From: Narcine bancroftii
Lineage: Eukaryota
Length of the DNA stretch: 64,000 bases
Assembly: GCF_036971445.1 (NCBI RefSeq)
Contig: NC_091480.1
Location: 23,870,001-23,934,000 of the forward strand
Direction of reading: 5' to 3'
This document shows, in pieces, positions 2,971 to 62,179 of the stretch. The first letter of the stretch is position 1. The number at the start of each line of letters is the position of its first letter. The notes under the pieces were generated by a model, which had not been told where the DNA came from, searched no databases, and was given only the letters and a program-made list of their open reading frames with translations. The position numbers were made by a program, and so were the translations under genes.

Positions 2971-3309
2971 GTTGTAACAGGAAATTGTCAAAGTGGCACA
3001 GGGCTATGGAGGCATCATGGTTGCAAATGTGAAGGGATTGCAAAGGGGAGAAAGACAAAAGTAAGAATAATGAGAGACAAGTTCTGTGGGACAAGAACTG
3101 ACTGAATCAATTGGCCTGGGGTGTTCCATTTGAGAGGACGTAGAAATGTGGGGTCTGAGACCGGAGGATGTGAAGAGAAGACCTGAGGGAGTGAATGCCT
3201 GGAAACCATCACTTGTGGGCTCATGGTAACAAGGAGAATTGCATTCATCATCTGAAAGGTGAAGGCCAGTTCACTAAGCCATCATAGGTAAGCAAATCAA
3301 ATGACAGTG

Positions 3310-3811: not shown

Positions 3812-4049
3812 AAGCCTTGGTTTGGATCAAGTCTTTGGTTCTTTCGACGAGCTCTACAATTTTATTAGCAAAAGACAGGAGCTCTTCACAGGTGGCCGAC
3901 CAGTCCGGAATGATCTGACCTGGCTAGGGACACAACCCTTTAAGGCCCAGACAATAGGCGTGGCTTAGCTCTCAGCCAATCGCTGTAAGCACAGTCTAGA
4001 TACAGCAGCTATATACACTATGTATTGGTGATAGATCTGTACTATCACA
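3812..4049 (-). mobile_element. Gypsy LTR directly abutting the integrase fragment
   Basis: Minus strand starts TGTGATAG at 4049, then ATTGG (CCAAT box), a TTAAAG TATA-like element and AATAAA. The ...CTCTACA terminus lies in the opposite orientation at 3851-3858. Confidence 0.65.
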
Positions 4050-10700: not shown

Positions 10701-11332
10701 TACCTTGTAAATGTGCTGATACCAAAAATAAATCAATTCTAGAAAATGAATCATGTCGTGAAGAATAAAAAGAAAAATCTTTCTAGGTAGGATTAACTTT
10801 TCTCCAAATATCCACCAAATTTAAATCTTTCATTAACACATTAATTTTTTTTTGCCATCTTTGATTTCCTTATATTTTTTGGATTTCTGTCCAATAAAGG
10901 GTCCAAAACACAATTAAAATCACCACCAACTAACACATTTTCATTAGCTTGAGTTAACAGTAAAAAAGCTTCTGAAATAAACCACTCATCATCTATATTT
11001 GGACCATAAAGTTTCAGCAAAGTCCAAGATTCAGCAAAAATTTTACAGTTCACTCTTAATTCTCTGCCAGCATACCCCTCCGAAGATTCCAATTCAAATG
11101 GTAAATTTTTATGAATCAAAATTGCTACTCCTCTTGGCTTAGAATTAAAAGAAGAAAAAACATGACCAACCCAATCTCTTTTCAATTTCAATTGTTATTT
11201 TTCAGTCAAATGTGTTTCTTGTAAAAAAGCAATATCAATTTTCATTCTTTTAATATAAGCCAATATTCTCTTTCTCTTAATTGGATTATTTAATCCCTGA
11301 ACATTAAAAGTTGCAAAATTCCATTTAGACAT
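7749..11332 (-). pseudogene. L1 ORF2 (APE endonuclease-RT-Cys-rich), frameshifted
   Basis: Starts M..WNFATFNVQGLNNPIKRK, then FLQETH, GGDFNCVLDP, LDAEKAFDRVEW, QGCPLSPALF, LFVDDVL and the C-terminal CFRC...H..WTC. Split over many ORF-track pieces. Confidence 0.92.
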
Positions 11333-11639
11333 CTTTTTTAACTACTAATATATTTACACACTATAAAATAATGCTCCCCTCTATAATTCTTCCAAAAAAT
11401 TAACCCTAAAAAAAACCCAGAAAAATACAAAAAAAAACATGCAAAGGTTGTAATACCCTAAAAATCTGGGTGTGGTAAACCCAATAGCGGCAGATAACTA
11501 TCAAAGTTTTCAGTGTCATCCACCTCCCCCAGCCAGATACATATTTATTATTTAATTACGATAAAATAGACCATATATTCAGCCCAATGATTCCAAGCCC
11601 AACGACTACTCCGAATCTTCAACATCAAGAAGACTTTGT

Positions 11640-13150
11640 GTCAACTCTTCTTTCTTTCCATTCTTTCCATACTTTCCATACCCATGTCCTTTTCCATTTC
11701 CCCTCCTCTTAGGATACAATGGAGGAGAACATCCATTTATTTGCAGTTCCGGCAAAGAATTAGCAAAAACCAAAGCATCGTGATCATTCTCAAAGAATTG
11801 AGATTGAAAATTTCCATTAAAAAACCTTCAAAATTGCAGGATAACGAAAAGCAAACATAGCCTTTTCGCCACAAAACATCTTAGGCCGTAATAAATTCTT
11901 GTCGTCTTCTAATAACCTCTTGGCTCAAATCGGCATAAAAGAACATTCTGTTATTTTGAACCATTAATGGAGACTGATTCAGCCGTGCTTTCTGTACTGC
12001 CATACGTAGAATCATTTCTCTATCTTGATATTTTAAACAACGAACCAAAACTGCTCTCGGTGTTTGTCCTGGAAGTGATTTTCTTCTCAGAGCTCTGGGA
12101 GCCTGGTCCAATTCCAAGCCTTCAGGAAAAAGCCATTTACCCAGCACTTCTGGGATCCAATACTTAAAATTTTTTATAGGATCGGCACCTTCAATGTCCT
12201 CTGGAAGACCAACTATTTTCACATTATTCCTTCGGCTTTGATTTTCCAATGAATGAATCTTCTTCAATAAATCTCTTTTTTGAATCTCCCAAACTACAAA
12301 AGAACCTTCCACTTGTTCCATTTTTTCTCTATTACGTTCTACCTGATTCTGACACTCAGAAAAGGCTGTTTCAATTTTCTTAAAATTATCTTCCTCAGTA
12401 TCAAATGATTTTATACATCCATTAATATCACTCTTAACTACAGTCATTTCCTGTTTCACAGTTGACATTTCATCACACAGGGTATTCATTTTTATTTTCA
12501 TCTCCATAAATCCTTGATTCACCTGAGTTGATATTGTTCTGACATATTATGCATTTGACAAGCAATCCCTTCCAAAACAGTAAACATTGAATCCATTCCA
12601 GATTCCATCTCCACTTTTTGAGGTCTTTAACTACAGGCTCCTTCTCCTGGACAAGTTCCAATAAGGTAAGTTCCTCTTCTTCCTCAGTCATTGTAGATCC
12701 TTTAGCTGAACGGCTGCGGGTCTGGACATCCGATGCCGGAACCCCGACCTCTTTGGGACGCCAGCGCGCGGGCTCCCCCACAGTCCATACTTTGTCCAGC
12801 AATTCTCAGACCCAGGATGCCCCACACAAGCTAGGCAAATCCGCCGGACATGCAGGAGCGTCCTCCTATGCTACACTGCATGCCCCCGGGCCACCCATTG
12901 AGGTTTCAGGTTCACGGGCACCTTTGTCAGCCGTGCCGCCTGTGCGCACAGCTTCACGTGAACACGTGTCAGCAACGGCTGATACCATCTTGCGGAGGCA
13001 GGATCGGCTCTGGGGTCAAACTCAAATGGGCTAGAGCCCTCTGATGCTTGGAGACTCCCAACGACGATTCTGTGGATTCAGCTATGCAGGTAGGCCTCAT
13101 TTCTTCTGTACTATCGTATGGTGATTTTTTTCTGAAGTTGAGGTTTAAAT
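11640..13150 (-). pseudogene. L1 ORF1 (coiled coil + RRM/CTD), frameshifted
   Basis: ORF 11881-12522 has a heptad region, then LENQSRRNNVKIVGLPEDIEG, PRAVLVRCL.YQDRE and FFYADLS.EV.RRR. Probable ATG near 13150. End coordinates are approximate. Confidence 0.85.
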
Positions 13151-15764: not shown

Positions 15765-15880
15765 AACACAAACATCCAGATTCGAGGGCAAAGTCTATCC
15801 TGTTGAAATCAGATTCTTAAATGGATCTTTCACTGGCAAGGATGATGCTCTTGCCCTGTTATTTCATTTAAAAAACTACA
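15765..15880 (+). mobile_element. Rex1/Babar LINE end of ORF; its 3' UTR hosts the minisatellite and resumes at about 19790-19930
   Basis: Translates to TSRFEGKVYPVEIRFLNG (compare RxRFxxSFYPxxIRLLN). A tail-like GATAGCATTCAGAACAAA...CATTGTATCTCG...GTGTCAAT follows the array. Confidence 0.5.
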
Positions 15881-16093
15881 CTTTTCTCTATAACCTGCAC
15901 TAGGTCTTTGCACTTTTCTCTATATCCTGCACTAAGTGTTTGCACTTTTCTCTATACCCTGCACTAGGTCTTTGCACTTTTCTCTATACCCTGCACTAGG
16001 TCTTTGCACTTTTCTCTATACCCTGCACTAGATCTTTGCACTTTTCTCTATACCCTGCACTAGGTCTTTGCACTTTTCTCTATACCCTGCATT
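15879..16093. repeat. 32-bp minisatellite, left part (about 7 units)
   Basis: Unit CACTTTTCTCTATACCCTGCACTAGGTCTTTG with period 32 (15911, 15943, ...). Confidence 0.97.
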
Positions 16094-19000
16094 AGGAACA
16101 TAGGAACATAGGAAGTAGGAACAGAAGTAGGCCAAAAAAGGCCCATCAAGCCTGCTCCGCCATTCAATACGATCATGGCTGATCTAATTTATGACCTAAC
16201 TCCACCTACCTGCCTTGTCCCCATATCCCCTAATTCCTCTATCATGTAAAAGTTTATCTAAATGAATTTTAAATATGTTTAATGAGGCAGCCTCAACCAC
16301 GTCCCTGGTTAGAGAATTCCAAACATTCACTACTCTCTGGGAAAAACTATTTTTTCTCATCTCTGTCCTAAATCTACTCCCCCGAATCTTGAGACTGTGT
16401 CCTCTCATTTTAGTTTCCCCGGCCAGCTCTAAAAACCTTCCTACATCTATCCTATCCATACCCTTCATAATCCTATATGTTTCTATAAGATCTCCTCTCA
16501 TTTTTCTGAACTCGAGCAAATACAATCCCAGATGATTTAATCTTTCATCATAAGTCAACCCCTTCATCCCAGGGATCAACCTTGCAAACCTTCTCTGACC
16601 GTCTCCAAAGCCAGTATATCCTTCCTCAAATATGGAGACCAGAACTGGACATAGTACTCCAGGTGCGGTCTCACCGTACCTTATACAGTTGCAACATGAC
16701 CTCCCTACTCCTGAATTCAATTCCTCTAGCGATGAAGGCCAACATTCCATTTGCCTTCTTAATAACCTGCTGCACCTGCAACCCAACTTTTTGCGATTCA
16801 TGCACAAGCACTCCCAAGTCCCTCTGCACAACACCATGCTGTAGTGTTTCACCCTTTAAATAATATTCAGCTCTTTTATTTTTCTTGCCAAAGTGGATAA
16901 CCTCACACTAACATTGTACTCCATCTGCCAGACCTTTGCCCACTCATCCAGCTTAACTATATTCCTCTGCAGACTCTCCACATCCTCATTACAATTTGCT
17001 CTTCCACTCAATTTGGTGTCATCCGCAAACTTGGATACACCACATTTTGTCCCCTCCTCCAAGTCATCAATGTAAATGATGAACAGTTGTGGGCCTAGCA
17101 CTGACCCCTGCGGCACTCCACTTACCACTCTCTGCCAACCTGAAAAACTCCCATTTATCCCGACTCTCTGCCTCCTGTCAGACAACCAATTTTCAATCCA
17201 GGCCAATATACTTCCCCGGACTCCACTTTCCTCTAACTTACTGATAAGTCTCTTGTGCGGCACCTTATCAAACGCTTTCTGGAAATCCAAATATACAACA
17301 TCAACCTGTTCCCCTCTATCCACCGCACCCATTATATCCTCAAATAATCCTAACAAGTTTGTCAAACAAGATCTTCCCTTTCTAAAACCATGCTGCGTCT
17401 GCCTGATTGAACCCTTACGTTCCAAAAGTTTCACTATTTCATCTTTAATGACCTTTAATGACGGCTTCAAGCATTTTTCCAACTACAGACGTCAAGCTAA
17501 TTGGCCGATAATTTCCAGTCTTCTGCCTACATCCCTTCTTAAAAAGTGGCGTGACATTTGCTGTCTTCCATTCTGCCGGGACCTGCCCAGAATCCAAGGA
17601 ATTTTGGTATATGACCACCAATGCATCAACTATAACTTCTGCCATTTCCTTCAGAACCCTTGGATGCATATCATCAGGACCAGGTGATTTGTCTGGCTTT
17701 AGTCCCATTAGTTTCTCCATCACTACTTCCTTTGTAACAACTATTTTATCAAGGCCCTCCCAAACATTCGCATCCTTAACTCCGCACTTGGGCATGCTGG
17801 ACGTGTCTTCCACCGTGAAGACTGACACAAAATATTTGTTTAATGCCTCGGCCATTTCCTCATTTTTTGCTACCAGTTTTCCTTTCTCATCCTCCAAGGG
17901 TCCTATGTTAACTCTGGCCACCCTCTTCCGTTTTATATATTTATAAAATTTTTTGCTTTCTGTTTTTATATTTTGTGCCAATTTACTTTCATAATCCTTT
18001 TTCCCATTTCTTATTACCCACTTTGTAACCCCTTGTTGTCTCTTAAAGTTTTCCCAATCTTCCAGTTTCCCACTGCTCTTTGCAGCTTTGTACACCTGCG
18101 CCTTCAATTTTATACTCTCCTTTATTTTCTTTGTTAACCACGGTTGATTTTTCCCTCTCTTGCTGCCCTTTTTCCTGACCGGAATATATTTTTGTTGAGC
18201 ATTACAAAATATTTCTTTGAAAATCTTCCACTGTTCCTCAACTGTTTCATCAATTAGCCTGTGCTCCCAGTCCAATCTGCCCAATTCCTCCCTCATCCTA
18301 TGGTAGTCACCCCTGTTTAAGCATAATATATTAGTTTTAGATCTAACTATTTCCCCTTCCATCTGAATGAGAAATTCAATCATACTATGATCGCTATTTC
18401 CCAGATGGTCTCTGTCTATTACATCATTTACTCTACCTATCTCATTGCACAACACTAGATCCAGGAGAGCATTTTCTCTTGTGGGTTCCTTAACATGTTG
18501 CTCAAGAAAGCTATCGTGGATGCATTCTATGAAGTCCTCTTCTAGACTCCCACGACCAACTTGATTTTCCCAGTCTATATGGAAGTTAAAGTCCCCCATG
18601 ACTACTGCTGTATCATTATTACATGCCTTACTTATCTCTCTATTTATTTCCTGTGCCTCTAAACTATTGTTATTTGGTGGGCGATAGATAACACCCACCA
18701 ATAATTTTTTCCCTTTGTTATTCTTTATCTCCACCCAAATGGACTCAACATTATGTTCTTTAGATCTTATATCATTCCTCACTACTGCCTGGAGCTCATC
18801 TTTGATTAAGAGTGCAACTCCACCTCCCTTACCATCCTGTCTATCTCTTTGCACCACCTGATACCCTTGAAAGTTTAATTCCCATTTAGGGTCACCTTGT
18901 AGCCATGTTTCCGCGATGGCTACCCAATCATTGGCATCGGTACTGATTTGCGCCTCAAGTTCACTAATCTTACTTCTAATACTGCGGGCATTCAGATAAA

Positions 19001-19097
19001 GTGCCCTTATGCTCTTTGTCTTTTTAATATCTAGTGACTTCTGTAACCTTTTCTTTTGATTTTTCTGCCCACTATTTTTCTTTGTAATTTTCTTATC
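16094..19097 (-). mobile_element. CR1 LINE, 5'-truncated, near-complete ORF2 (APE endonuclease + RT)
   Basis: LYLNARSI, ETWL, GVIYRPP, MGDFN, SDH, NYRPISLTS, YLDFQKAFDKVPH, GVPQGSVLGP and FADDTKL, with a (TTCCTATG)n tail. Frameshifts from a 10-bp duplication CTTTAATGAC (17443-17462) and a small deletion near 16905. Confidence 0.95.
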
Positions 19098-19795
19098 TAG
19101 GTCTTTGTACTTTTCTCTATACCCTGCACTAGGTTTTTGTACTTTTCTCTATACCCTGCACAAGGTCTTTGCACTTTTCTCTATACCCTGCAATAGGTCT
19201 TTGCACTTTTCTCTATATCCTGCACTAGGTGTTTGCACTTTTCTCTATATCCTGCACTAGGTGTTTGCACTTTTCTCTATATCCTGCACTAGGTGTTTGC
19301 ACTTTTCTCTATATCCTGCACTAGGTCTTTGCACTTTTCTCTATACCCTGCACTAGGTCTTTGCATTTTTCTCTATATGCTGCACTAGGTCTTTGCACTT
19401 TTCTCTATATCCTGCACTAGGTCTTTGCACTTTTCTCTATATCCTGCACTAGATCTTTGCACTTTTCTCTATATCCTGCACTAGATCTTTGCACTTTTCT
19501 CTATATCCTGCACTAGATCTTTGCACTTTTCTCTATATGCATTAGGTCATTTCACTTTTCTCTATATCCTGCACTAGGTGTTTGCACTTTTCTCTAAATC
19601 CTGCACTAGGTGTTTGCACTTTTCTCTATATCCTGCACTAGGTGTTTGCACTTTTCTCTATATCCTGCACTAGGTCTTTGCATTTTTCTCTATATCCTGC
19701 ACTAGGTCTTTGCACTTTTCTCTATATCCTGCACTAGGTGTTTGCACTTTTCTCTATATCCTGCACTAGGTCTTTGTACTTTTCTCCTGCACTAT
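19098..19795. repeat. 32-bp minisatellite, right part (about 22 units)
   Basis: Same unit as 15879-16093, with variant blocks (GGTGTTTG, GATCTTTG). Confidence 0.97.
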
Positions 19796-29416: not shown

Positions 29417-29831
29417 CGTTAGAGGCTGTTTTATTGTTATCAATAGACATCATAACATGTATATTATACAATTCAAATAGGAAACTGTTCCGCCGACTTT
29501 GATCAACTTCATAATTTTCACAACATGCTCACAACAGTTTCCAACCAACCTTGGGTGTTAAAGCACATGCCTCTGACTTTGAAATTTGTCATCTCCAACA
29601 GTGCACATTACAACATTTGACTATCTCAAGGACAAGATGGCAAAATGCAGAAGGAAAACTTAATTGGAGTGAAATGCATTTCATAAACTGAAATAAGTCC
29701 CTTGCATAACAAAAAGAAAAAATTCTGTAGGCATGAGCTGAATGGAACAAATAAAAGAGATGAAATAGAGATGGACCTGTGGAGGAACATGATATTTCAA
29801 GCATACTGTGGGGAAATAATATCACACTATT

Positions 29832-30447
29832 AGCATATACAGAGCCGTTGTCATACCCACACTCCTGTTCGGCTCCGAATCATTACCGGCATCACCTACG
29901 GCTCCTAGAACGCTTCCACCAGCGTTGTCTCCGCTCCATCCTCAACATTCATTGGAGCGACTTCATCCCCAACATCGAAGTGCTCGAGATGGCAGAGGCC
30001 GGCAGCATCGAATCCACGCTGCTGAAGATCCAATTGCGCTGGGTGGGTCACGTCTCCAGAGTGGAGGACCATCGCCTTCCCAAGATCGTGTTAGATGGCG
30101 AGCTCTCCACTGGCCACCGTGACAGAGGTGCACCAAAGAAGAGGTACAAGAAATCTCTTGGTGCCTGCCCCATTGACCACCGCCAGTGGGCTGATCTCGC
30201 CTCCAACCGTGCATCTTGGTGCCTCACAGTTCGGCGAGCAGCAACCTCCTTTGAAGAAGACCGCAGAGCCCACCTCACTGACAAAAGACAAAGGAGGAAA
30301 AACCCAACACCCAACCCCAACCCACCAATTTTCCCCTGCAACCATGTCTGCCTGTCCCGCATCGGACTTGTCAGCCACAAACGAGCCTGCAGCTGACGTG
30401 AACATTTACCCCTCCATAAATCTTCCTCCGCGAAGCCAAGCCAAAGA
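29832..30447 (+). mobile_element. RTE LINE 3' fragment with small internal deletions
   Basis: RHHLRLLERFHQRCLRSILNIHW...SHKRACS*. Lacks the DCLK and RCN codons present in the other copies. Confidence 0.92.
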
Positions 30448-33886: not shown

Positions 33887-33943
33887 TAATATTAATGAGA
33901 ACATTAATACATATTATTATTAATACATAATAATATAAACAAT

Positions 33944-35055
33944 AAAGACTTCAACAATGAAGACGCTGTTTACATCCGGTACCGCACGGATGGCAGTCTC
34001 TTCAATCTGAGGCGCCTGCAAGCTCACACCAAGACACAAGAGAAACTTGTCCGTGAACTACTCTTTGCAGACGATGCCGCTTTAGTTGCCCATTCAGAGC
34101 CAGCTCTTCAGCGCTTGACGTCCTGTTTTGAGGAAACTGCCAAAATGTTTGGCCTGGAAGTCAGCCTGAAGAAAACTGAGGTCCTCCATCAGCCAGCTCC
34201 CCACCATGACTACCAGCCCCCCACATCTCCATCGGGCACACAAAACTCAAAACGGTCAACCAGTTTACCTATCTCGGCTGCACCATTTCATCAGATGCAA
34301 GGATCGACAACGAGATAGACAACAGACTCGCCAAGGCAAATAGCGCCTTTGGAAGACTACACAAAAGAGTCTGGAAAAACAACCAACTGAAAAACCTCAC
34401 AAAGATAAGCGTATACAGAGCCGTTGTCATACCCACACTCCTGTTCGGCTCCGAATCATGGGTCCTCTACCGGCATCACCTACGGCTCCTAGAACGCTTC
34501 CACCAGTGTTGTCTCCGCTCCATCCTCAACATTCATTGGAGCGCTTTCATCCCTAACGTCAAAGTACTTGAGATGGCAGAAGTCGACAGCATCGAGTCCA
34601 CGCTGCTGAAGATCCAGCTGCGCTGGGTGGGTCACGTCTCCAGAATGGAGGACCATCGCTTCCCAAGATCATGTTATATGGCGAGCTCTCCACTGGCCAC
34701 TGTGACAGAGGTGCACCAAAGAAAAGGTACAAGGACTGCCTAAAGAAATCTCTTGGTGGCTGCCACATTGACCACCGCCAGTGGGCTGATATCGCCTCAA
34801 ACCGTGCATCTTGGCGCCTCACAGTTTGGCGGGCAGCAACCTCCTTTGAAGAAGACCGCAGAGCCCACCTCACTGGCAAAAGGCAAAGGAGGAAAAACCC
34901 AACACCCAACCCCAACTAACCAATTTTCCCCTGCAACCGCTGCAACCGTGTCTCCCTGTCCCGCATCAGACTTGTCAGCCACAAACGAGCCTGCAGCTGA
35001 CGTGGACAATTTACCCCCTCCATAAACCTTCGTCCGCGAAGCCAAGCCAAAGAGA
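33944..35055 (+). mobile_element. RTE LINE, 5'-truncated
   Basis: RT C-terminal half (LFADDAAL), nearly identical to 39481-40890, with frameshifts and a complete 3' tail. Confidence 0.95.
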
Positions 35056-38000
35056 GAATGAGAACATACCATTGTAGATGGCTGAATATCATTGTTTACA
35101 TGCTGCTATGACTTAAGACAATCTACACTCACATGAAAGAGTAGAAGTGCACCAAATAATGACTTGGTATCAGTCTATATGGTAATTTAGATTCAAGAAG
35201 TGGGTTTAAAATAATTTTTGAAGAGCAAACAATAGAAACTCAACATTTAAACTTGGAATTGAACATCTTGGTGCAACAAACAATATGTGCCCTTCCCCCT
35301 CTGTTCCCGGAAATCCCAGAGGTAGAGGGTATGATCCCTGCTCTGAGACATCATTATCTCAGCCCATGTCCTCTGCTCTTTGGGCCAGAGAGAGACCATC
35401 CACCAACGCAGTGGGAGGTGCAGGGTAGCCTCATGGGTAAAAAGTGCAAGTGCCCCCATTTTCCTGCTCAGCACTTCACTGAAAATTAGTCATTCGATTA
35501 AAGATGACAAATCATGCAAATCCTCACTGAGGTCCTAATGAGGTCATTAAACCATTTGTGGCACTGAACCCATGAATGAGTATCAGTCACAGGTTCTTGG
35601 TGTTAGCTGCAGGTTTCTACCTCCTGTCAACAAGTAATGTGATCTCACTGTGTGGCTTTATCACATCCAGGGAGAAATGGAGGGGCAGCCTTGATGCAAT
35701 GCCCTCCTTTGCAAGAACTCATTTTAGATGAAATTTGCAGAATGTCTTTCAAAATCCTGAGTTTGAAACAAGTCGCAAAGTCAGAAAGTTTGAAAACTGT
35801 GGGACTGGGCTCATTGAGTGGTTGGTGCCACAGTTGGAAGAGAGCTGCTGAAGAACAGAGAGAAGGAATGAAGCCCAGTTGAATAAGACTATATATAACC
35901 TGGATGCTCGGGGAGTGACCACAAGTACATGCTACTTGGTGGAACAATGTGCACTAAATTCTCAGGCAGTGGTCCAAAACGAGCTGTGCACAAGGAACAT
36001 TTGGTGCACTTGGCATGGAAACTGCATTACAAAGGTAAGTGTGGTGTGTGGCCAGAGCGGCACACTTGAATTTCTAGCAAAACTGGACCTGGAAATTTCT
36101 TGAAAAACATCATTATTGTCAGCCATAGAGTGTTGAAAGGAACAGCTCCCTGGCTCCAAATTCCCCACCTCATCGATTTGATTTGAAAAATATATTGCTG
36201 AGAAGTATATGGTTAGGGATCAACTTCACATTCCTTGCATATAGATTTTCAGGCAAGAATCATACAGCACCTCAATCATATAAAGTCCCTTCATTACTGG
36301 TCTGAAATCCAATTTTTGCAGCACTGTGACTTTTTTTATTTCACACATCAAACCACCATCATGTTACATACCATCCATGTATTGGTGAATCAGAACTCAG
36401 TTTATGTCTTGGTTTTATGCCTGCTCAGAACTCATTTATACTGCTCCAACATATTCTTTGCAGGAGTCCCAAATCACCCCGTGGATTTCACTTCAGTTGA
36501 CAAAGCTTTGAAGCTCCGACCCAATTGAATAGGCTGTCCATTAGCTGTCCTCTTCAGTTTTAAGTAGATCATCAATTTGAAAAAGTACGATATCCATCCA
36601 ACTGGCATTGTTATTCATTATTTATGACTTTTGCCTACTATTTATCAGTGTTAAGCAGTCAACTGTCTCAGATGAGAAAAAAAAGTCTTCATAACAAATT
36701 TGGCCAGCTCTTATTTTACACGAGGTCAAATATCTCCTGAATGCATAAATTATTGACATGTCACTTTAATTGTTTCGAGTTTAACTATTCCATTTCAAAA
36801 CCAAAGCCTGTAAATCCCCATTTGCCCTGAATTTTAAAGAGCAGTTCAGTCATGTTCAGAAGTTCTGACACAATGTTATCTGTTTCTTATCTTCTACGGT
36901 TAATTTGCACTTGTCAAAACATAAAATTTTCTTCCCAGGAAACATTATCTCAATCCAATTCAGTTGGTAATCCTGAGACCAAATGCTTTTGTCAAAACAA
37001 CACGAGTTTTGCATTCTGGTGAAATGTGCAAGATCCAATTTGTTCAGGGTGTTTTGTACCTTTTCAAAATAAGGTAAAATGAATCCCACCTTGTTTTATG
37101 CGTTTACCATTATGCTAAACATAGCAATGAGGAAGTAGCAGTGAAAGTGAAATTGGAGTTAAATCAGAGACAATTTTTCTAAAAAGTTGCTTTTGAGTTT
37201 CAGGATTTCCTCCAAGTATCCGATGTTTTGACACCTTGCAACTTCACTTATATTCTTTAACATTAAGCTGACCATTCCATCCTGATTTGCTTTTATTATA
37301 CACGGCATTATTTTGAAGGCGGTACTTATATTCTGAAAAAGAAATCTTAATGCTACGAACTTTACAAATCAAGATGCATGATGCCAGTTTTAAGATCAAG
37401 CTAGTTTTAACATTTTTCCAGATTTTTTAAATTTTACATTTTCTAACTCAAGACTTACAACATTGGAATGGATTGAGCTCTGATGTGGGTCATTCGAGAC
37501 CTGCCACCCAGAGACATCTGATATTGTCCATCCGCGAGCTGTGCCTGACAAGCTGTAGTATGGAAGTACAGAATATATTCAAGGTCAAGGTCAAGTACTT
37601 GATCATCCAACCTCTTGCTCTACTGTTGGATTTATCGACGAGAACATTGATTGGACTGGGCTAAAAGGCCTAACATAATTTACATAATGGCTCCTCAGCT
37701 CAACATCATCCATGCACAATGTACATTCTCATTCATTGACAAAAGTTTGGGTTAAGTTTATTAAATGTTTCCCTAATTTCCAACTTCATTTCTTTAATTT
37801 ATATTATCATTATAAATGCTCAAGCCTTTTTTCCATTTGTATTTGTTAACTATTCAAGTTAATTTAAGCTGCTTGTAAATATCTGATTTCAGACAGATTC
37901 AAAATCAAAGTGCTTTATTTAATAAACTATATATACATATTTATACACATACAGGTTACACACTAATTTATTTTCTCCAAAACAACCACTGACTTTCACT

Positions 38001-38111: not shown

Positions 38112-38284
38112 TAGCCCACCTCACTGACAAAATGCAAAGGAGGAAAAACCCAACACCCAACCCCAACCAACCAATTTTCCCCTGCAGCCGCTGCAACCGT
38201 GTCTGCCTGTCCTGCATCGGACTTGTCAGCCACAAACGAGCCTGCAGCTGACGTGGACTTTTACCCCCTCCATAAATCTTCGTC
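38112..38284 (+). mobile_element. RTE LINE 3' tip in a (CA)/(TA) microsatellite, running into an assembly gap
   Basis: AGCCCACCTCACTGACAAAA...CATAAATCTTCGTC. Confidence 0.9.
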
Positions 38285-38516
38285 NNNNNNNNNNNNNNNN
38301 NNNNNNNNNNNNNNNNNNNNNNNNNNNNNNNNNNNNNNNNNNNNNNNNNNNNNNNNNNNNNNNNNNNNNNNNNNNNNNNNNNNNNNNNNNNNNNNNNNNN
38401 NNNNNNNNNNNNNNNNNNNNNNNNNNNNNNNNNNNNNNNNNNNNNNNNNNNNNNNNNNNNNNNNNNNNNNNNNNNNNNNNNNNNNNNNNNNNNNNNNNNN
38501 NNNNNNNNNNNNNNNN
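38285..38516. other. Assembly gap (N run)
   Basis: N bases. Confidence 1.
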
Positions 38517-38522
38517 ATAGAT

Positions 38523-39480: not shown

Positions 39481-39488
<8 letters not shown>

Positions 39489-40889
39489 TTCTTTGGCTTG
39501 GCTTCGCGGACGAAGATTTATGGAGGGGGTAAAAAGTCCACGTCAGCTGCAGGCTCGTTTGTGGCTGACCAGTCCGATGCGGGACAGGCAGACACGATTG
39601 CAGCGGTTGCAAGGGAAAATTGGTTGGTTGGGGTTGGGTGTTGGGTTTTTCCTCCTTTGCCTTTTGTCAGTGAGGTGGGCTCTGCGGTCTTCTTCAAAGG
39701 AGGCTGCTGCCCGCCAAACTGTGAGGCGCCAAGATGCACGGTTTGAGGCGTTATCAGCCCACTGGCGGTGGTCAATGTGGCAGGCACCAAGAGATTTCTT
39801 TAGGCAGTCCTTGTACCTTTTCTTTGGTGCACCTCTGTCACGGTGGCCAGTGGAGAGCTCGCCATATAATACGATCTTGGGAAGGCGATGGTCCTCCATT
39901 CTGGAGACGTGACCCATCCAGCGCAGCTGGATCTTCAGCAGCGTGGACTCGATGCTGTCGACCTCTGCCATCTCGAGTACCTCGACGTTAGGGGTGTGAG
40001 CGCTCCAATGGATGTTGAGGATGGAGCGGAGACAACGCTGGTGGAAGCGTTCTAGGAGCCGTAGGTGGTGCCGGTAGAGGACCCATGATTCGGAGCCGAA
40101 CAGGAGTGTGGGTATGACAACGGCTCTGTATACGCTTATCTTTGTGAGGTTTTTCAGTTGGTTGTTTTTCCAGACTCTTTTGTGTAGTCTTCCAAAGGCG
40201 CTATTTGCCTTGGCGAGTCTGTTGTCTATCTCATTGTCGATCCTTGCATCTGATGAAATGGTGCAGCCGAGATAGGTAAACTGGTTGACCGTTTTGAGTT
40301 TTGTGTGCCCGATGGAGATGTGGGGGGGCTGGTAGTCATGGTGGGGAGCTGGCTGATGGAGGACCTCAGTTTTCTTCAGGCTGACTTCCAGGCCAAACAT
40401 TTTGGCAGTTTCCGCAAAGCAGGACGTCAAGCGCTGAAGAGCTGGCTCTGAATGGGCAACTAAAGCGGCATCATCTGCAAAGAGTAGTTCACGGACAAGT
40501 TTCTCTTGTGTCTTGGTGTGAGCTTGCAGGCGCCTCAGATTGAAGAGACTGCCATCCGTGCGGTACCGGATGTAAACAGCGTCTTCATTGTTGGGGTCTT
40601 TCATGGCTTGGTTCAGCATCATGCTGAAGAAGATTGAAAAGAGGGTTGGTGCGAGAACACAGCCTTGCTTCACGCCATTGTTAATGGAGAAGGGTTCAGA
40701 GAGCTCATTGCTGTATCTGACCCGACCTTGTTGGTTTTCGTGCAGTTGGATAATCATGTTGAGGAACTTTGGGGGACATCCGATGCGCTCTAGTATTTGC
40801 CAAAGCCCTTTCCTGCTCACGGTGTCGAAGGCTTTGGTGAGGTCAACAAAGGTGATGTAGAGTCCTTTGTTTTGTTCTCTGCACTTTTC

Positions 40890-40890
<1 letters not shown>
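39481..40890 (-). mobile_element. Young RTE LINE, 5'-truncated, uninterrupted RT reading frame
   Basis: ORF 39543-40931: FVDLTKAFDTV, GVKQGCVLAPTLF, LFADDAAL, YLG and a C-terminal C..C...H...C. Flanked by (TA)n on both sides. Confidence 0.97.
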
Positions 40891-40924
<34 letters not shown>

Positions 40925-41839
40925 CACACACACACTATGAGAGAGAGAGAGAGTACTTCCTTCTTCCACCTCTCCCAATGACTTGGTGTCATCAGCATTG
41001 AGAGAGGTAGTCATGCATTGTGAATTGATCCCTCGCATTGTGGAACTGTCCACATGTTGCTGACGGAAGAGGCCTGAAAATAGGACATGGAAAATTAACT
41101 CGTCCTCCACTATTTATCAGGACTACCATCCACAACTGCCCAGGGCTCCAATGCAAACACTTCATCCCTTCCTAAGGTTGCACACTAATTTCTTTACTGC
41201 AAGAGACCACTTAATTTTACTGACTCATAGATATTCAAAGTGTTTCAGTTGTGCCTCTATGTAGAGTGGTCCACAGAGGAAATCAAATCTGGCAAAGGAA
41301 ATTTAATAAAGATCACTGTCAAACCATAAGCCAACATATTTTGTTGCATTCCTATGATCCAATGGTATTTGGCAATGTAATGACAACAACACAACTTGTC
41401 TCTATTTAGGAGGTTGCATGACCTGTCGACACTGTGGAAGAAATAATAAAGTAGCAGTTACTGGATAAATGGTGCAAGGGATCCACAAGTCATAACCTGG
41501 CCATTGTTCTTCTTATGCACAGAGTCGTCCATCACGAGGCCGTCACAGACAGGACCATGCACAGCTGAGCTTGTTGAAAGCTAACTTGGATGGAGCAAAG
41601 GATGAAGAGCCAGAAGGTTGCATACTTAAAGAAATCAGGAAGATTTGCTTAAAGTGAGAGTCACTACAAGAGGATGACTAGGACACAGTTGATTGTCAAG
41701 TAGAAGCCCTAATAAAACAAGAGAAGTCCTGGCAGTCAGGACATGAATGGCAAAGATAGAAAACAGATGTCAAACATACATGCACATGCACACAACACCG
41801 CAGAAGATGGAATCATGAAGTAGAAGATAAGTAATCATT

Positions 41840-44880: not shown

Positions 44881-45109
44881 ATTAAATTCGAGACACACCT
44901 GGCAATCTTACCATTGAAAAGGGCAGAGATTGCAGAGGAAGTGTTGGACTGGGCAGGTGAGTGGAAGGATTGCGTAAGTAACATTTGCAGGAAGGCTGAG
45001 AGAGAGGAAGCAAGATGACGAGACTTGCTAAAATGGGACTGAAATGGCAACGTTCAGGAACAATGGAAAATATCTACCTGGAACATGCTCAAATTTCTTC
45101 AGCAGCAGG

Positions 45110-45345
45110 CCCAGTTGGAATAGGCCGTTTTAATTCGACACCAGAGCAATCAACATTATAAATTCTGCCCTGGTGCTTTTGCTGGCCTCCTCTTTCCAGT
45201 AGACCTTTCCATCTGTCAATAAGTGGCAGCCCAGTTGGAATAGGCCGTTTTAATTCGACACCAGAGCAATCAACATTATAAATTCTGCCCTGGTGCTTTT
45301 GCTGGTCTCCTCTTTCCAGTAGACCTTTCCATCTGTCAATAAGTG
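45110..45345. repeat. Tandem duplication with 120-bp period (2 copies)
   Basis: 45121-45180 is identical to 45241-45300. One substitution in the rest of the core (GCTGGCC/GCTGGTC). Confidence 0.97.
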
Positions 45346-50860: not shown

Positions 50861-51044
50861 GGAAGTATTCAGGACAAAATATAACCAGGAAGATGTTACC
50901 ATTTCATGGTAATATAGCATCATAACATTTCATTGGTTTCTTTATGATCTCTGATTGCTTTATAATTGAAGTATAGAGTCGATGATATAAAGCACATATT
51001 GTTGAAGGCATGATTACCATTTCAATCACTTACACTTTTCAATT

Positions 51045-52369
51045 TTTCTCTTTGGCTTGGCTTCGCGGACGAAGATTTATGGAGGGGGTAAAAAGTCCAC
51101 GTCAGCTGCAGGCTCGTTTGTGGCTGACAAGTCCGATGCGGGACAGGCAGACACGGTTGCAGCGGTTGCAGGGAAAAATTGGTTGGTTGGGGTTGGGTGT
51201 TGGGTTTTTCCTCCTTTGCCTTTTGTCAGTGAGGTGGGCTCTGCGGTCTTCTTCAAAGGAGGTTGCTGCCCGCCAAACTGTGAGGCACCAAGATGCACGG
51301 TTTGAGGCGTTATCAGCCCACTGGCGGTGGTCAATGTGGCAGGCACCAAGAGATTTCTTTACACAAGAGAAACTTGTCCGTGAACTACTCTTTGCAGACG
51401 ATGCCGCTTTAGTTGCCCATTCAGAGCCAGCTCTTCAGCGCTTGACGTCCTGCTTTGCGGAAACTGCCAAAATGTTTGGCCTGGAAGTCAGCCTGAAGAA
51501 AACTGAGGTCCTCCATCAGCCAGCTCCCCACCATGACTACCAGCCCCCCCACATCTCCATCGGGCACACAAAACTCAAAACGGTCAACCAGTTTACCTAT
51601 CTCGGCTGCACCATTTCATCAGATGCAAGGATCGACAATGAGATAGACAACAGACTCGCCAAGGCAAATAGCGCCTTTGGAAGACTACACAAAAGAGTCT
51701 GGAAAAACAACCAACTAAAAAACCTCACAAAGATAAGCGTATACAGAGCCGTTGTCATACCCACACTCCTGTTCGGCTCTGAATCATGGGTCCTCTACCG
51801 GCACCACCTACGGCTCCTAGAACGCTTCCACCAGCGTTGTCTCCGCTCCATCCTCAACATCCATTGGAGCGCTTTCATCCCTAACGTCGAAGTACTCAAG
51901 ATGGCAGAGGTCGACAGCATCGAGTCCACGCTGCTGAAGATCCAGCTGCGCTGGATGGGTCACGTCTCCAGAATGGAGGACCATCGCCTTCCCAAGATCG
52001 TGTTAGATGGCGAGCTCTCCACTGGCCACCGTGACAGAGGTGCACCAAAGAAAAGGTACAAGGACTGCCTAAAGAAATCTCTTGGTGCCTGCCACATTGA
52101 CCACCGCCAGTGGGCTGATAACGCCTCAAACCGTGCATCTTGGCGCCTCACAGTTTGGCGGGCAGCAACCTCCTTTGAAGAAGACCGCAGAGCCAACCTC
52201 ACTGACAAAAGGCAAAGGAGGAAAAACCCAACACCCAACCCCAACCAACCAATTTTCCCCTGCAACCGCTGCAACCGTGTCTGCCTGTCCCGCATCGGAC
52301 TTGTCAGCCACAAACGAGCCTGCAGCTGACGTGGACTTTTTACCCCCTCCATAAATCTTCGTCCACGAA
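51045..52369. mobile_element. RTE insertion with two outward-facing 3' ends (- arm 51045-51360, + arm 51361-52369)
   Basis: The left arm is the reverse complement of the RTE 3' ~315 nt; the right arm is RT through the 3' end. TTTCAATT flanks both sides (51037-51044, 52370-52377). Confidence 0.92.
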
Positions 52370-55329: not shown

Positions 55330-56545
55330 TTGCCCTTACCTACCACCCCACCAGGCTTTACATCCAACATATTATCCCCCCATAATTTGGTCACCTACAA
55401 AATGATTCTCTGTACTCACCTCTCCACCTTCCACATGTCGACTCTCATGTTGACTCATCCCTTCCCACTAATTGCCCCTGCAGTAGCTACCCTTGTGACC
55501 GCAGGAAGTGCCTCTCTTGCACCCACATCTCTGCCCTCACCACCATTCAGGGCCCCAGTCTTTCCAAGTAAAGCAACACTTCACTTGTGAATCTGCAGGA
55601 GACATCTCCTGCATCTGATGCTAATGTTGTGGTCTTTTCGACATCAGAGAGACTGGACGTCTACTGGGAGATGGCTTTGTTTTGAGCATCTTTGCTCTGT
55701 CCGCAGCAATGATGGTGGACGCCTACTGGGAGATCGCTTTGTTTTGAGCATCTTCGCTCTGTCCGCAGCAATGATGGTGGACGCCTACTGGGAGATCGCT
55801 TTGTTTTGAGCATCTTCGCTCTGTCCGCAGCAATGACGGTGGACGCCTACTGGGAGATCGCTTTGTTTTGAGCATCTTCGCTCTGTCCGCAGCAATGATG
55901 GTGGACGCCTACTGGGAGATCGCTTTGTTTTGAGCATCTTCGCTCTGTCCGCAGCAATGATGGTGGACGCCTACTGGGAGATCGCTTTGTTTTGAGCATC
56001 TTCGCTCTGTCCGCAGCAATGATGGTGGACGTCTACTGGGAGATCGCTTTGTTTTGAGCATCTTTGCTCTGTCCGCAGCAATGATGGGGATCTTTTGTGG
56101 CCGCCCCTTTTGATTCTGTGCCCCACTCCTACACCAACATGTCTGTCCAAGGCCTTGTGCACTGCCATGCCAAGGCCACCTGCAAATTGGACGAGCACCT
56201 GATATTCCATCTAGATACTCGACAACCGGATGGCATTAACATTGAATTTTGTTTCTATTAGGCCACTCCCCAGTCTTTCCCTCTTTCTCCTCTCTTTTAA
56301 CTCTCCACCCCCTTCCCTCTCCATTCAGAATTATTACTTCTCAGATTTCTTTCTTTTGTGTCCTCCCTTCTCCATCCACCTATGACATGTTTCCTGTGGA
56401 CCTGTGCTCCTCTCCCTGCCCCTCTCTCCACCATTTTATTTGCTTTTTGCTCGAGGGTCAGGACCAAAATGTTGATTTGGATGCTTTATCTTTGCAATAT
56501 AAAAAACACTGCATGACCTGTTGAGTTTCTCCAGCATTTTTTGCA
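55330..56545 (+). mobile_element. Penelope-like element 3' part with internal tandem expansion
   Basis: C..RKCLSC.H, HFTCES, ETGRLLGDRF.EHL.SVR, KLDEHLIFHLDTRQPDGINIEF, and terminal GACCTGTTGAGTTTCTCCAGCA. Confidence 0.85.
55655..56088. repeat. 62-bp minisatellite, 7 near-identical units
   Basis: Unit GGACGCCTACTGGGAGATCGCTTTGTTTTGAGCATCTTCGCTCTGTCCGCAGCAATGATGGT. Confidence 0.97.
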
Positions 56546-57169: not shown

Positions 57170-58362
57170 TGAAGGTTATATGGACAGACATATACCATAG
57201 AAACAAGCTGTTCTGCCCAATTTGTTCATGCTGACCAAGTTTCCGACATGAACTAGCCCCATTTGCCTGCAAATGTCTTTCCCAAGTTATAATTACATCC
57301 GCCTCTAACACATACTTTACCAGCTGGTACCATATACCCAGCACTCTCTGTGGAAAAGGTTCCCTCTCAGGCCCCCTTTTAATCATTCCCCGGCTCATTG
57401 TGAACCTATGCCCTCTAGTTTTAGACTCCCTACTTTGGGAAAACTCACCATTCACCTTTCTACACTGCTCAGTATTTTCTGAATTTCTGTAAGCTGCCTT
57501 TTAGCTTCCTACACATCAGGAAAAAAACTCTGCCTATCCAATCCTTCCTCACAATCCAAGCCTTCTAGTTCAGGAACATTCTTGCTAATCATTTTAATCT
57601 TTTACAGCTTCATGACATCTTTCTCGTAGCTGGGAGTACTGTGTACAGTGCTGGTCACCAAGTACAATCTCACCAATGTCTTATACAGTTGTATCAAATC
57701 TTGCCAACTGATGTACTTAATGACCAGACCAATGAAGGCAAGTGTGGCAAATGCCTTTTGCAACACCATGCCTGTGTTGTCACCATCAGGGATCGATGTG
57801 CCTGGTCTCTTTGCTCTGCAACAATTTCCATGTCCTGCCATTTACTGTGGAAGCCCTGATCTGGTTTAACTTATTAAAATACAATTTACACTTGTCCTAG
57901 TTAAATTCCACCCCCCTTTCCTTGACTCACTTCCCAAGTTGATCCAGATCCGGTTATTGAACATTACAGCACAGTACAAACCCTTTGGGCCACAGTTTTG
58001 TGCTGACGTGTACAAACCTTCCCAACAAGCTACATCTTCCCCACCTCACATTCATAACTCTCTATCGTTCTTCCATGTATGTGCCTGTCTAAGACTCTTT
58101 CAAATGCCCTGATAGTACCAGCCTCCACCAACACCCCGGCAATCCATTCCAGACACCCACTACTCTGTGTAAAAAAAACTTATCCCTGATGTTTCCCCTA
58201 AACTTCCCATCCTCACCTTGAATGTATGTCCTCTGGCATTTGTTAATCTCACACTGGGGAAAAAAGTGTTGACTGTTCACCCTATCTATGGGTCTCATAA
58301 TCTTGTAGACCTCCATTAAATCACCTCTCATCCTACGAAGAGAAATGCCTAGCTCTGTTAAT
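57170..58362 (-). mobile_element. Two adjacent CR1 3' fragments (57170-57955, 57960-58362)
   Basis: KTRGHRF...FPQRVLGIW, QLYKTLVR and MRGDLMEVYKIMR.IDRV...FFLHRVVGVWNGLP. Confidence 0.85.
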
Positions 58363-58528
58363 TGTTATGCTTGTTCTTTCAAGAAACACTAAACCAACTT
58401 TATTTTCCTTGAGCTGCTTCAACCGACTTCTAGCAACAACACCTATCATATGTCTCTTCCGGTTTCCACCCAACCACACACATTGCATGCTGGAAAATAT
58501 AGTTCTTATTTACACACATAATAACACA
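58363..58528 (-). repeat. 3' LTR (about 165 bp) preceded by a polypurine tract
   Basis: TG(TG)TTAT...ATAACA termini, PPT at 58529-58539, AATAAA at 58399-58404 (-), ZNF143-like ACTATATTTTCCAGCATGC and ETS-like CCGGAAG. Confidence 0.8.
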
Positions 58529-58611
58529 TCTTTCCCCTTAAAATAAATAAAAAAAACACAATACTATGTCTACATAGCAAAAGTATCTCCATTCCAGGGT
58601 TGGTCTCTTTC

Positions 58612-59340
58612 CATCAGATGACTTCTGGCTTCACAAATTCATTCAAGTTTGTTCAGGGCATCTGCAAGATTCAGCTGAAGTTCAGAAATCCATAAAGAGG
58701 TGTTTTGTTTGCTCTTCCTTTACCTGTTTCTCAGCAAGTTCATGAAGAGTCACCAGTTGATTTTGCTGCTTCAGTTCTTCAACATTACGATAGGTCACCA
58801 GATGCTGAGAAATAATTTCAGAGGAGCTGCTTATGTCAGCAGAACTAATGTAATCTTCACGTAAAATATGATTTCCTCGCATATCTTCTCGTTCCCTCAA
58901 AAGTACCCTGCTGTTAAGGCGCTTGCATTTCGCATCTCTGATTCTCCCTGTTGAGTAATAAAGCATGCTTATTTGCTTCATTAGAGCATTTCTGTAAATG
59001 GTGAATTTCCTTCATGGCACCTTCTAATTTAGCTGAGAGATTTCCCACAGATTTTTGCATTCGTTCATATTCTTCACACTGGCACTTCAGAAGCAAAGCT
59101 TTCATCTCCACTTCATTCACAATTTCATCCAAATAGTTTTCTCTCTCTTATTTTCCTGTTTTGCCAATAGCAATTGATCTTGAGCTTCAACATATCCATT
59201 AGACAACTCTGTGAGCTTCACAATCTTGGTCACAGTTGTTGCAATGGGAGACATAGGTGCCACTCCCGCTTCTGATAGTGTGGTGGCTCCTTTAAGCTTT
59301 GTAGTTGAAAGAAAATTGTTTTTTTATTTTCTAATTTCTC
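58612..59340 (-). pseudogene. TPR: Processed TPR (nuclear basket protein) fragment, about human residues 350-605
   Basis: LS.TK.KGA..LSE....[99 protein letters not shown]. No introns; frameshifts and a stop. Confidence 0.92.
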
Positions 59341-59751
59341 ACCATGAAGACACTCTTCAAGTTGTTTTCTTCAGAGTTCAGATCCTTGTATTGATAAATT
59401 CTTATCCTCTAATGCAGCCATTCTTTCTTTTAGATGCAGCTGAAGTCACTCATCAGAGTCTCTAAATGTCGCAAATATTCTTCTGCACTGCCAGGCCGTT
59501 CTTCAGCCTTTGTCAGAGCTACAATTCACTAGGCAAGTTCAGCGTCTACTTCTGGTAATGTTTCTGCTCGCTTCATCGTTTGCTGAAGTTCCAGATGTTC
59601 CTGTAACTCTATTTTTGTCTTCTGGCTGGCGTAAGAAGGCATCCTTATTTTCCAACTCATTTTCCAGTTTGTCATTCATGTCATGTAATGAGGTTGATTC
59701 TCTCTGTACATTAAGGTATCTCTTCTCCAGTGTAGTCAACCTTCCTCCCAT
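59341..59751 (-). pseudogene. PPFIA2: Processed liprin-alpha (PPFIA2/4-like) coiled-coil fragment; paralogue uncertain
   Basis: [82 protein letters not shown]. No introns; internal deletions. Confidence 0.9.
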
Positions 59752-60897
59752 GAGTGTTGTGTGCTTATCTTCAGTCTGTGAAGCCACTATGAAAACTCTT
59801 TTCACCAGGCCGAGCTCTTCACATGCACACAGACTTAATATTGGCTGAACTCTCCTTTCTACAATCAGCAGCTGTGGCTTTAGATGCTGTCCTTTGTGCT
59901 TGAAGGTCATCATACAGCCTCCTTTTACTGGAACTTTCTCTCCAGTCTAGCCTGTCACTTTTAATCTCACAGGATAAATCTTGTTCTTTATAGTGAGGGT
60001 CTTGTAATCATCCATAATAACAGATTCACTTGGGCTCCAGTGCTCATCTTCAGTGGAATTACTTATTCATTCAGCCACTGGACGATCCATTCCATTTTTA
60101 CCGCAGCAGTCTGTAGTGAATCCATTTTTTTGTCCACTGTGTGCACCTTTCTCTTCATATCCCCTGTTTTGCAGCACTTTGCAAAATGATTCTTCTTTCC
60201 ACATTTATAGCAGGACTTTCCTTAGGTAGGCACATCTTTGGAATATGTCCACCTCTGCACCTACTGCATTTGTTGTCTGAGCTTACTACTTTGCTTTGTT
60301 GTTGTTTTGGGAAACTCCTGGTGCCCTGCTTAACTGTTTTCATTGCATGCACTGTTGTGTCTATCCTGTGCAGCTCCTTCGCTTGTTCTCATGTGGTCTC
60401 TGCTGCCCTACACATATTCACAGCCTTTTCCAGAGTAAAATCTTTTACACACAACAGTCTTTCTCTAAATCTATTATCTGGGATTCTGCAAACTCTTCTG
60501 TCTTTAATGAATGAATTTTTGAAATCTCCAAATTCACAGGAATTACTCAGTGTGTGAAGCTCGGTTAAGTATTGTTCAAACCTCACATCTGGATTCTGGT
60601 CACAAGAGAAAAACTTGAATCTCTCAAATGTGATGTTTTCACTTGGAGCAAAATACTCCTCAAATTTTGTCATCAGAGTGTGCATTGTTAAAGCTGTCTC
60701 ATCAATTGAAAACTGTTATAGATGTCCAAGGCATCTTTACCTATCACATGTAGAAACATAGACACTTTCCGTTTTCCATCAGTCTCTCCCATTCCACCAG
60801 CCTCTAACTAAATGTTGAATCGCTGTTTGAAACATTTCCAGTTGTCAGCTAGATTGTCGATAAACTGCATCGGTGTGGGAGGACTCAACTTATCCAG
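59752..60897 (-). pseudogene. Gypsy gag + aspartic protease, decayed
   Basis: (L/M)DKLSPP..NLADNWK.FKQRF, KFEEYFAP..NITFERFKFF...Q, LKDR.VC.I.D...RERLL...FTLEKAV..CRAAE, two zinc knuckles (CSRC...H...C; KNHFAKCC), a degraded DTGAQVN and QPILSL.AC..LGLVKRV. Confidence 0.88.
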
Positions 60898-60940
60898 GCT
60901 TACAAACTATTATCTTCTCTTACTCTCTCAGACACTATGT

Positions 60941-61262
60941 GAAAAAAAATTACCCCTGACGTCTCCTCTGAACTTTCCTCCCTTCACTTTGTACTGATGT
61001 CCTCAGGTGTTTGCTTCTCTAGTCCAGGGGAAAAGGTGCTGGCTGTCTACCTTATCCATGCCTCATAATTTTGTACACCTCTATTAAGTCATCTCTCATC
61101 CTTCTTTGCTTGCAAAGAGATAATCCCGAGCTCTGCTAACCTTGCCTCATAAGACATATTTTCCAATCCAGGCAATATCCTGGTAAATCTCCTCTGCATC
61201 CTCTCCAAAGGTTCCACATCCTTCCTGTAATGAGGTGAACTGAACTGAACACAATATTCAGA
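60941..61262 (-). mobile_element. CR1 fragment
   Basis: EYCVQFSSPHYRKDVEPLERMQRRFTRILPGLENMSYEARL.ELG. Confidence 0.88.
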
Positions 61263-62179
61263 GTTATTATCCAAGATTATTGTTATCACCGCCTTCACCA
61301 GAGGAAATTTTGGTGTCATGCACAAACTAACCAACCATGCCAACTACATTCTTATCAGAACCTCCTCCTTGCTGCTACAACTACCAGTGGTGAAACATTA
61401 CATTGGTTAAATTGGACAGAGCTGGAAAATGTGTGCTGGGAACACAATTAACATTTAAAATGCCCTCACATAGGTCAAACACAAAATCCCATTGCAACAC
61501 AACCTTATTGCACCACAATCTTGCCCAAATTGGTAAGCGAACCACACCTGCCTGCGCCAGCACATGTTGATGAAAGCTGGAGTGCAACTTGAAAAGTGCT
61601 GCGCTCATCAAGGCTGGTGAAGACCGAGCATAAAGCAGCGAAGAAGATGTATCCATTCAGAAAGAGAACATGCATCTCTAAATTGAAAGGTAGACACGAG
61701 TCAAAGGCAATCAATAAGTACCTCCCTATCCTTGCAGATCCATATGTCAATGCTGCCTGGTGGTCTCTGCTAAGATAGAAGAAGATTTCAGCTCTCCTTC
61801 TGTGCAGTGCATTTATAACCAGTTTCTACTCTGTGGCTTCAGTTGTGAAGCATTTTAGCAGAGACCAGTTTATTGAAATTAAGTATTCCAATACTTAATG
61901 GGATGGGATAGTTGGTCTGCAGGTGAAGAGAGCTAGTCAGACATTGTCTGCACTAGATTCCATCCTACAGTCCTGTGTAACATCCCATTTCATTGGCAAT
62001 TGAGACCCACCAGAGGCGGTGACGGAGCAACATTGCAGGAGGCACAGCCCTCTGCATCTTCCACAACAACTCCCCCTCCTCTGCCCATCTTCTGTACTTC
62101 CACAACCCCCTCCCCCCCCCCCCCCACCCCCCAAAGGGCCATGTAAAGGTCTTTCTGATATCAATCAACATCTTCCCTC

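Follow-up and report, generated by a model that had tools for sequence, protein, structure and literature searches.

A dead Ty3/Gypsy-type element carrying liprin-alpha2 and TPR coding segments in Narcine bancroftii: probably an LTR-mediated chimeric retrocopy

In a 64,000-nt stretch of the Narcine bancroftii genome (RefSeq assembly GCF_036971445.1, contig NC_091480.1, positions 23,870,001 to 23,934,000; hereafter the window), a minus-strand segment of the nuclear-basket protein TPR is found within the remains of an LTR retrotransposon, next to a piece of a second host protein, and its limits fall close to those of the domain that anchors TPR at the nuclear pore. The locus therefore raises the question of whether such a fragment once served the element, tethering its particles to pores or acting as a dominant-negative decoy in the export of its unspliced RNA, as the original prediction had proposed, or whether the overlap with the anchoring domain is incidental. 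We conclude that the latter is probably the case, and that the locus is most likely an LTR-mediated chimeric retrocopy, now dead, whose captured coding sequence decayed free of selection.

By its sequence, the host element is best described as a dead, broken copy of a Ty3/Gypsy-type LTR retrotransposon in which, along the minus strand, gag and protease are followed by the liprin-alpha2 and TPR pieces and then by a polypurine tract and a 3' LTR candidate. Its predicted gag (60130..60901, approximate limits), broken by two stops and two frameshifts, is assigned to Retrotrans_gag (PF03732) by Atlas feature clusters (score 0.94, 23 of 30 matches) and holds a putative CCHC zinc knuckle (60168..60215; Pfam zf-CCHC, E 0.026, under the curated cut-off), with a second Cys-His motif just upstream in another frame. 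The adjoining stretch (59762..60129), with two stops and one frameshift, is predicted by homology to protease relatives to be an aspartyl protease followed by a protease-RT linker; the protease is 59-64% identical to the top three protease-side matches. Three of its relatives, P0014, P0018 and P0049, match Asp_protease_2 or gag-asp_proteas, and P0006, a gag-protease protein that itself matches nothing, shares 140 of 277 residues with gag and protease together. A gag with a CCHC knuckle followed by an aspartyl protease is the arrangement expected of Ty3/Gypsy elements (Metaviridae), and we take the two Cys-His motifs and the short LTR to indicate a resemblance to the Mag group; no named gag-pol relative was present among the 18 candidates of a word-indexed gag search.

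The cargo is flanked by gag-protease upstream and by the polypurine tract and LTR candidate downstream. Past the TPR piece, a tail of 69 nt on the minus strand (58540..58608), ending in a T-rich run and possibly representing the element's own 3' end, leads to a putative polypurine tract, AAGGGGAAAGA (58529..58539, minus strand), directly ahead of the 3' LTR candidate (58364..58528, minus strand). The latter is about 165 nt long and shows the sequence hallmarks of TG...CA ends, a short terminal inverted repeat and an AATAAA at 58404. Neither blastn at word size 7 nor a local alignment scan found a partner for it in the window; this copy lacks RT, RNase H and integrase, and the 64-kb window contains no second copy of the element and no tRNA. 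The place expected for the 5' LTR and its primer-binding site is taken up by LINE debris (60932..61260, minus strand), recognized by its similarity to other LINE sequence (58162-58334, 74%; the RT-bearing LINE at 16446-16659, 65%) and presumably CR1-like, judging from motifs; such debris lies about 30 nt ahead of gag and is also found immediately after the LTR candidate. Two features near the missing end were considered and rejected. A TG...CA stretch at 61281-61453 was dropped as a 5' LTR because its score of 63 is within the range of shuffled sequences (mean 45, maximum 68) and because part of it resembles LINE-like stretches at 44612 and at 17012, and a primer-binding-site look-alike near 60930 is explained equally well by the adjacent LINE debris.

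The captured TPR piece occupies 58609..59340 on the minus strand, within three bases of the 58612-59340 given earlier. Its reading frame matches Pfam PF25785 (TPR; E 5.5e-11), and in a frameshift-aware alignment of TPR residues 352-604 of the whale shark, Rhincodon typus, with window positions 59340-58609, 171 of 238 aligned codons are identical (72%). The alignment is broken by four frameshifts (near 59321, 59142, 58916 and 58705), one stop (58639) and three short deletions. There are no insertions over the 732 nt, and the piece is thus collinear with TPR and intronless over a region that presumably spans several exons in the host gene. Identity is lower to the TPRs of a chimaera (66%), a bird (65%) and a paddlefish (63%); four TPRs were present among the 149 candidates of a homologue search that used the longest open stretch of the piece as query. 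At diagnostic sites the piece sides with whale shark against chimaera by 22:7, against bird by 23:6 and against paddlefish by 33:10, and such sites, together with those of the liprin piece described below, point to elasmobranch donors for both cargos.

Placing the piece on human TPR was done indirectly, by way of whale-shark and bird TPR and the chain in PDB entry 5TO7. The motif SEQQYF occupies position 49 of the human 5TO7 chain, a construct that we take to begin at human residue 2, and position 51 of whale-shark TPR, which has one extra residue relative to bird between ELENAN and MSPT; together these give a numbering offset of 2. With this offset the published L458 falls on Leu and the crosslinked residue 477 on Lys in whale-shark TPR, while the residues there at the published positions M489 and 582 are Leu and Asn; in the window piece the L458 and K477 equivalents are retained and the M489-equivalent site is Cys. 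No further anchors for the human numbering were found. A PDB search with the TPR frame of the window gave no significant match, and one with bird TPR retrieved N-terminal 141-residue structures only. The resulting span, about human residues 351-602 (±2), agrees with the earlier estimate of roughly 350-605. As delimited in the accessible part of a recent preprint (bioRxiv 10.64898/2026.10.08.757499), the NPC-binding domain of TPR covers 357-606 in its historical definition and 450-606 in a narrower one, and the ZC3HC1-binding ZBD2 covers 386-481. The predicted overlap with the pore-anchoring region is therefore borne out: the captured piece holds all of 386-481 and nearly all of 450-606, ending about four residues before 606. 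In contrast to the domains so defined, it is broken, with deletions in both of them, and brings no NLS. Of the 2112 possible 252-residue windows of the 2363-residue protein, 4.7% contain 450-602, 1.7% contain 386-602, and 0.5% have both ends within 6 residues of 357 and 606, the last by a criterion chosen post hoc.

The second cargo, at 59342..59761 on the minus strand, likewise proved to be a coiled coil, as had been proposed. It corresponds to about residues 310-488 of Narcine bancroftii liprin-alpha2 (PPFIA2), matches PF25526 twice (E 2.5e-29 and 5.1e-13), and has Narcine bancroftii liprin-alpha-2 as its best named match among those listed, with 119 of 145 positions identical, including seven ambiguous junction positions. 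Of seven diagnostic sites, six side with Narcine over skate and none the other way. The piece has lost about 36 codons internally and carries two frameshifts and four stops. It derives from spliced mRNA: by hand count, 119 of the 133 liprin-side matches listed in the profile search described below stop at query residue 129-134, as an exon end would explain, and the window continues past this point like the full-length proteins do. Six short matches among those listed start at query residues 71-83 and all end at 130-132, and the match table suggests that these are genomic exon frames. At the internal deletion (59455-59460) two short, similar sequences meet, which is what template slippage would leave.

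Both cargos replace, rather than interrupt, the internal reading frames of the element: the protease-RT linker joins directly to liprin, and the polypurine tract comes 69 nt past TPR. The protease-liprin join (junction 1) is in frame and lies inside a stop-free frame at 59539-59946, and the liprin-TPR join (junction 2) is in frame as well. At the site of junction 1, the protease-RT boundary of four of six relatives reads (F/L)M(E/K)EY, where liprin has DMEER; at junction 2, HDKERL of liprin meets EKELEN of TPR. These shared residues suggest microhomology at both putative switch points, as judged from amino acids. The relative P0018 extends beyond the linker but matches the window only up to 59749. 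Hallmarks of L1-type retrotransposition are absent, with no poly(A) after TPR and no mRNA 3' end, both cargos being internal coding pieces. Two in-frame joins would be expected once in nine cases at random; since shared codons at a switch point would give an in-frame join without selection, however, the frame counts for little as a sign of function. The proposed non-random retention of coiled coils draws on two cargos in one copy. A purine-rich composition as the reason for coiled-coil cargo is not supported, the A+G fraction being 0.58-0.61 in the cargo vs. 0.59-0.60 in gag and protease.

Protein databases yielded no fused relative among the matches listed. An unfiltered profile search with the protease-liprin join against 1.84 billion representatives gave 395 matches, and among the 150 listed (17 protease-side and 133 liprin-side) none scored higher over both sides. 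Word-indexed searches retrieved only ordinary TPRs among longer proteins (four matches), only liprin-family proteins in the 120 listed of 4282 matches to liprin, and no match to gag; such word-indexed searches are weak negatives, and protein sets cannot show dead or unannotated DNA copies.

The pattern of decay is that of DNA free of protein-level constraint. Gag and protease have accumulated four stops and three frameshifts in about 1140 nt, and the two cargos together five stops and six frameshifts in about 1150 nt; the five cargo stops compare with 3.8-4.4 expected under neutrality, distributed as one in TPR vs. about three expected and four in liprin vs. about one expected. The first stop comes some 30 codons into gag, and no open frame in this copy extends as far as the TPR segment. 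Within the latter, changes affect 35 of 154 invariant sites and 19 of 84 variable ones, a contrast of low power given that true orthologues show odds ratios of only 1.4-2.0, none significant. The mean BLOSUM score of its substitutions (-0.31) lies within the neutral expectation (-0.29 to -0.34), and its changes are harsher than those between orthologues (-0.41, n=29, vs. +0.64, n=59; p=0.004, leaving out sites within three codons of breaks). Nor is the anchoring stretch kept any better, with 18 of 86 invariant sites changed vs. 17 of 68 elsewhere and 10 of 63 in ZBD2. Invariant sites have changed somewhat more often in TPR than in liprin (35/154 vs. 15/110, p=0.08), the neutral divergence estimate for the TPR piece is 0.12-0.13, and CpG depletion is about 3-5-fold throughout, in gag and protease as in the two cargos. 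Neither an open frame nor purifying selection on the cargo is thus seen in this copy, whose TPR piece appears, from its neutral spectrum, to have decayed like unselected DNA; alongside this decay, the parent element may have gone through a short functional phase.

An origin as a chimeric retrocopy is favored because the cargo replaces pol, is followed by the polypurine tract and LTR candidate and has no poly(A) at its end, and because the junctions fall on shared codons, the donors are spliced and elasmobranch, the decay is neutral, and the overall structure is that described for such retrocopies. From this anatomy we infer the following course of events. Spliced liprin-alpha2 and TPR mRNAs would have been co-packaged in a Ty3/Gypsy-type particle in the elasmobranch germline, and reverse transcriptase would have switched templates at short shared sequences during minus-strand synthesis, passing from the element to TPR, to liprin and back to the element in one round or two, so that the liprin and TPR segments took the place of RT, RNase H and integrase. 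The chimeric product would then have integrated as a non-autonomous element and subsequently lost its 5' LTR, while the cargo decayed, presumably without selection on the protein.

In the accessible text of Tan et al. 2016 (PMC5131818), LTR-mediated chimeric retrocopies are described across animals as partial mRNAs in place of internal reading frames, multi-gene chimeras included, with microsimilarity at 25 of 29 Drosophila retrocopy junctions; 14 of 21 older retrocopies show decay, and older ones are also described as having lost one of their LTRs. Examples given there are the Drosophila CG4799_CG11924_r in BATUMI and the four-gene 'Super' retrocopy of mouse. The Narcine locus resembles these in its spliced partial mRNAs replacing reading frames, its several parents, the residues shared at junctions 1 and 2 and its lack of L1 hallmarks, and the older ones in its loss-of-function changes and the apparent loss of one LTR. 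Unlike them, as far as that text extends, it belongs to an elasmobranch host outside the species set, is older and more decayed, and retains gag and protease ahead of the cargo. None of TPR, PPFIA, liprin or Megator occurs in the nine of its ten supplementary files that were covered (all but file 1). Maize Bs1, as the same accessible text presents it, is also a non-autonomous LTR element with several host-gene pieces replacing pol, but is multi-copy with shared switch points and cited as protein-coding, whereas here there is one dead copy with no sign of constraint. No earlier report of a liprin- or TPR-carrying element was found in the literature searched, subscription papers being mostly beyond reach.

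Three features do speak against an accident, namely the two in-frame joins, the two coiled-coil cargos and TPR limits that lie close to 357-606 and take in the anchoring stretch (4.7% of random windows), and for their sake we keep a small share of probability for a non-autonomous LTR family, once mobile in elasmobranchs, in which the Gag-protease frame ran into the liprin and TPR coiled coils and which kept them, as protein or as piRNAs, for nuclear-basket docking or TPR antagonism; we consider this improbable. Its protein version, which we regard as very improbable, holds that an active parent made a Gag-protease-liprin-TPR protein or released the cargo, and that docking at the basket or competition for NUP153 or ZC3HC1 eased export or entry of the element's RNA or particles. 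In its favor are the in-frame state of junctions 1 and 2, the presence of ZBD2 and almost the whole NPC-binding domain with the L458 and K477 equivalents retained, the binding of short TPR segments to the nuclear envelope in HeLa cells, as described in the accessible portion of bioRxiv 10.64898/2026.10.08.757499, and the rise of CTE-dependent export upon TPR depletion. The last result, from the available text of Rajanala and Nandicoori (PMC3258255), shows that TPR restricts such export and upholds the role in retention of unspliced RNA on which the original prediction drew. Against these stand the neutral substitution spectrum, the deletions in ZBD2 and the NPC-binding domain, the Cys at the M489-equivalent site, the loss of 36 codons, together with a frameshift, in the liprin segment that precedes TPR in this copy, and the failure to find any fused protein in four protein searches (150 and 120 matches listed, four TPR matches, none for gag). 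The published pore-binding segments, moreover, all carried an added SV40 NLS (same preprint, accessible portion), whereas the NLS of TPR lies in its C-terminal region (PMC3258255, available text), which the captured piece does not include. In that same available text, TprN, an N-terminal fragment without an NLS, was mostly cytosolic and restored retention, the opposite of a dominant-negative decoy, although its authors caution about overexpression effects of N-terminal fragments. The proposed tether or decoy thus finds no backing here, with no open frame, a neutral spectrum, no intact fusion found and the NLS not captured.

Antagonism could also have acted through RNA, the captured TPR sequence giving rise to piRNAs or siRNAs that lower host TPR mRNA and relax retention of unspliced RNA; needing no reading frame, such a mechanism would make the overlap with the anchoring domain irrelevant. 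It agrees with the absence of constraint on the protein and with the direction in which TPR knockdown acts, and has a precedent, in the accessible text of PMC13534243, in Drosophila telomeric retrotransposons that repeatedly captured fragments of nxf2, piwi and aub, with piRNAs against the host gene. The likeness extends to carrying a fragment from a host gene able to act against retroelement RNA, but those elements, as that text has them, are non-LTR and active, made repeated captures of 140-235 nt from one pathway, and come with piRNA evidence. Here there is one copy within the 64-kb window, liprin-alpha2 offers no such rationale, and the TPR divergence of 0.12-0.13 nears the 79-82% identity at which targeting vanished in Drosophila (same source and extent); we regard this as the most improbable of the readings considered. 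Finally, the cargo might have arrived by another route, as processed pseudogenes that LINEs made and inserted into an LTR copy already in place, or through later DNA rearrangement joining separate retrocopies. LINE debris on both sides of the element, the richness of the window in LINEs, the missing 5' LTR and the somewhat greater divergence of TPR than of liprin would all suit this; the absence of poly(A) or a 3' UTR, the sense orientation of two internal coding segments, the replacement rather than interruption of pol and the joins on shared codons would not, and we hold it to be quite improbable. The chimeric retrocopy accordingly remains the preferred reading, and the locus a cartilaginous-fish example of an LTR element shuffling exons of two genes, for which the evidence points to accident. 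Should the cargo prove multi-copy and constrained, a retroelement would be linked directly to the checkpoint that the nuclear basket imposes on unspliced RNA; a once-functional family would mean that a module for nuclear-basket anchoring had passed from host to retroelement.

The rest of the window holds several further elements. An integrase core fragment at 3297-3923 (minus strand; rve, E 3e-17) is unrelated and belongs to a different LTR element, and a low-GC region at 8000-12550 (minus strand), which holds remnants of endonuclease and RT as well as an ORF1-like frame, is probably a decayed L1-type element. The same 32-nt minisatellite at 15879-16096 and 19097-19786 lies to either side of a LINE (16196-19148) that is nearly full and has both endonuclease and RT, as would be seen had this LINE inserted into the array or carried it along. 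RT-bearing LINE copies at 29764-30396, 33908-35058, 39485-40934 and 50986-52369 are young, most pairs being 92-99% alike and some inverted, and the last contains a short inverted 5' piece; from their motifs we take them to be of RTE type. A run of N at about 38280-38520, an assembly gap, adjoins a LINE end. Around 55654-56087, where the sequence, which we take to resemble a Penelope-like GIY-YIG element, gave no match in a Pfam scan, there are seven tandem copies of a 62-nt unit, 98% alike. At 45109-45345 lies an exact tandem duplication of 120 nt (99%), which is either biological or an assembly artefact.
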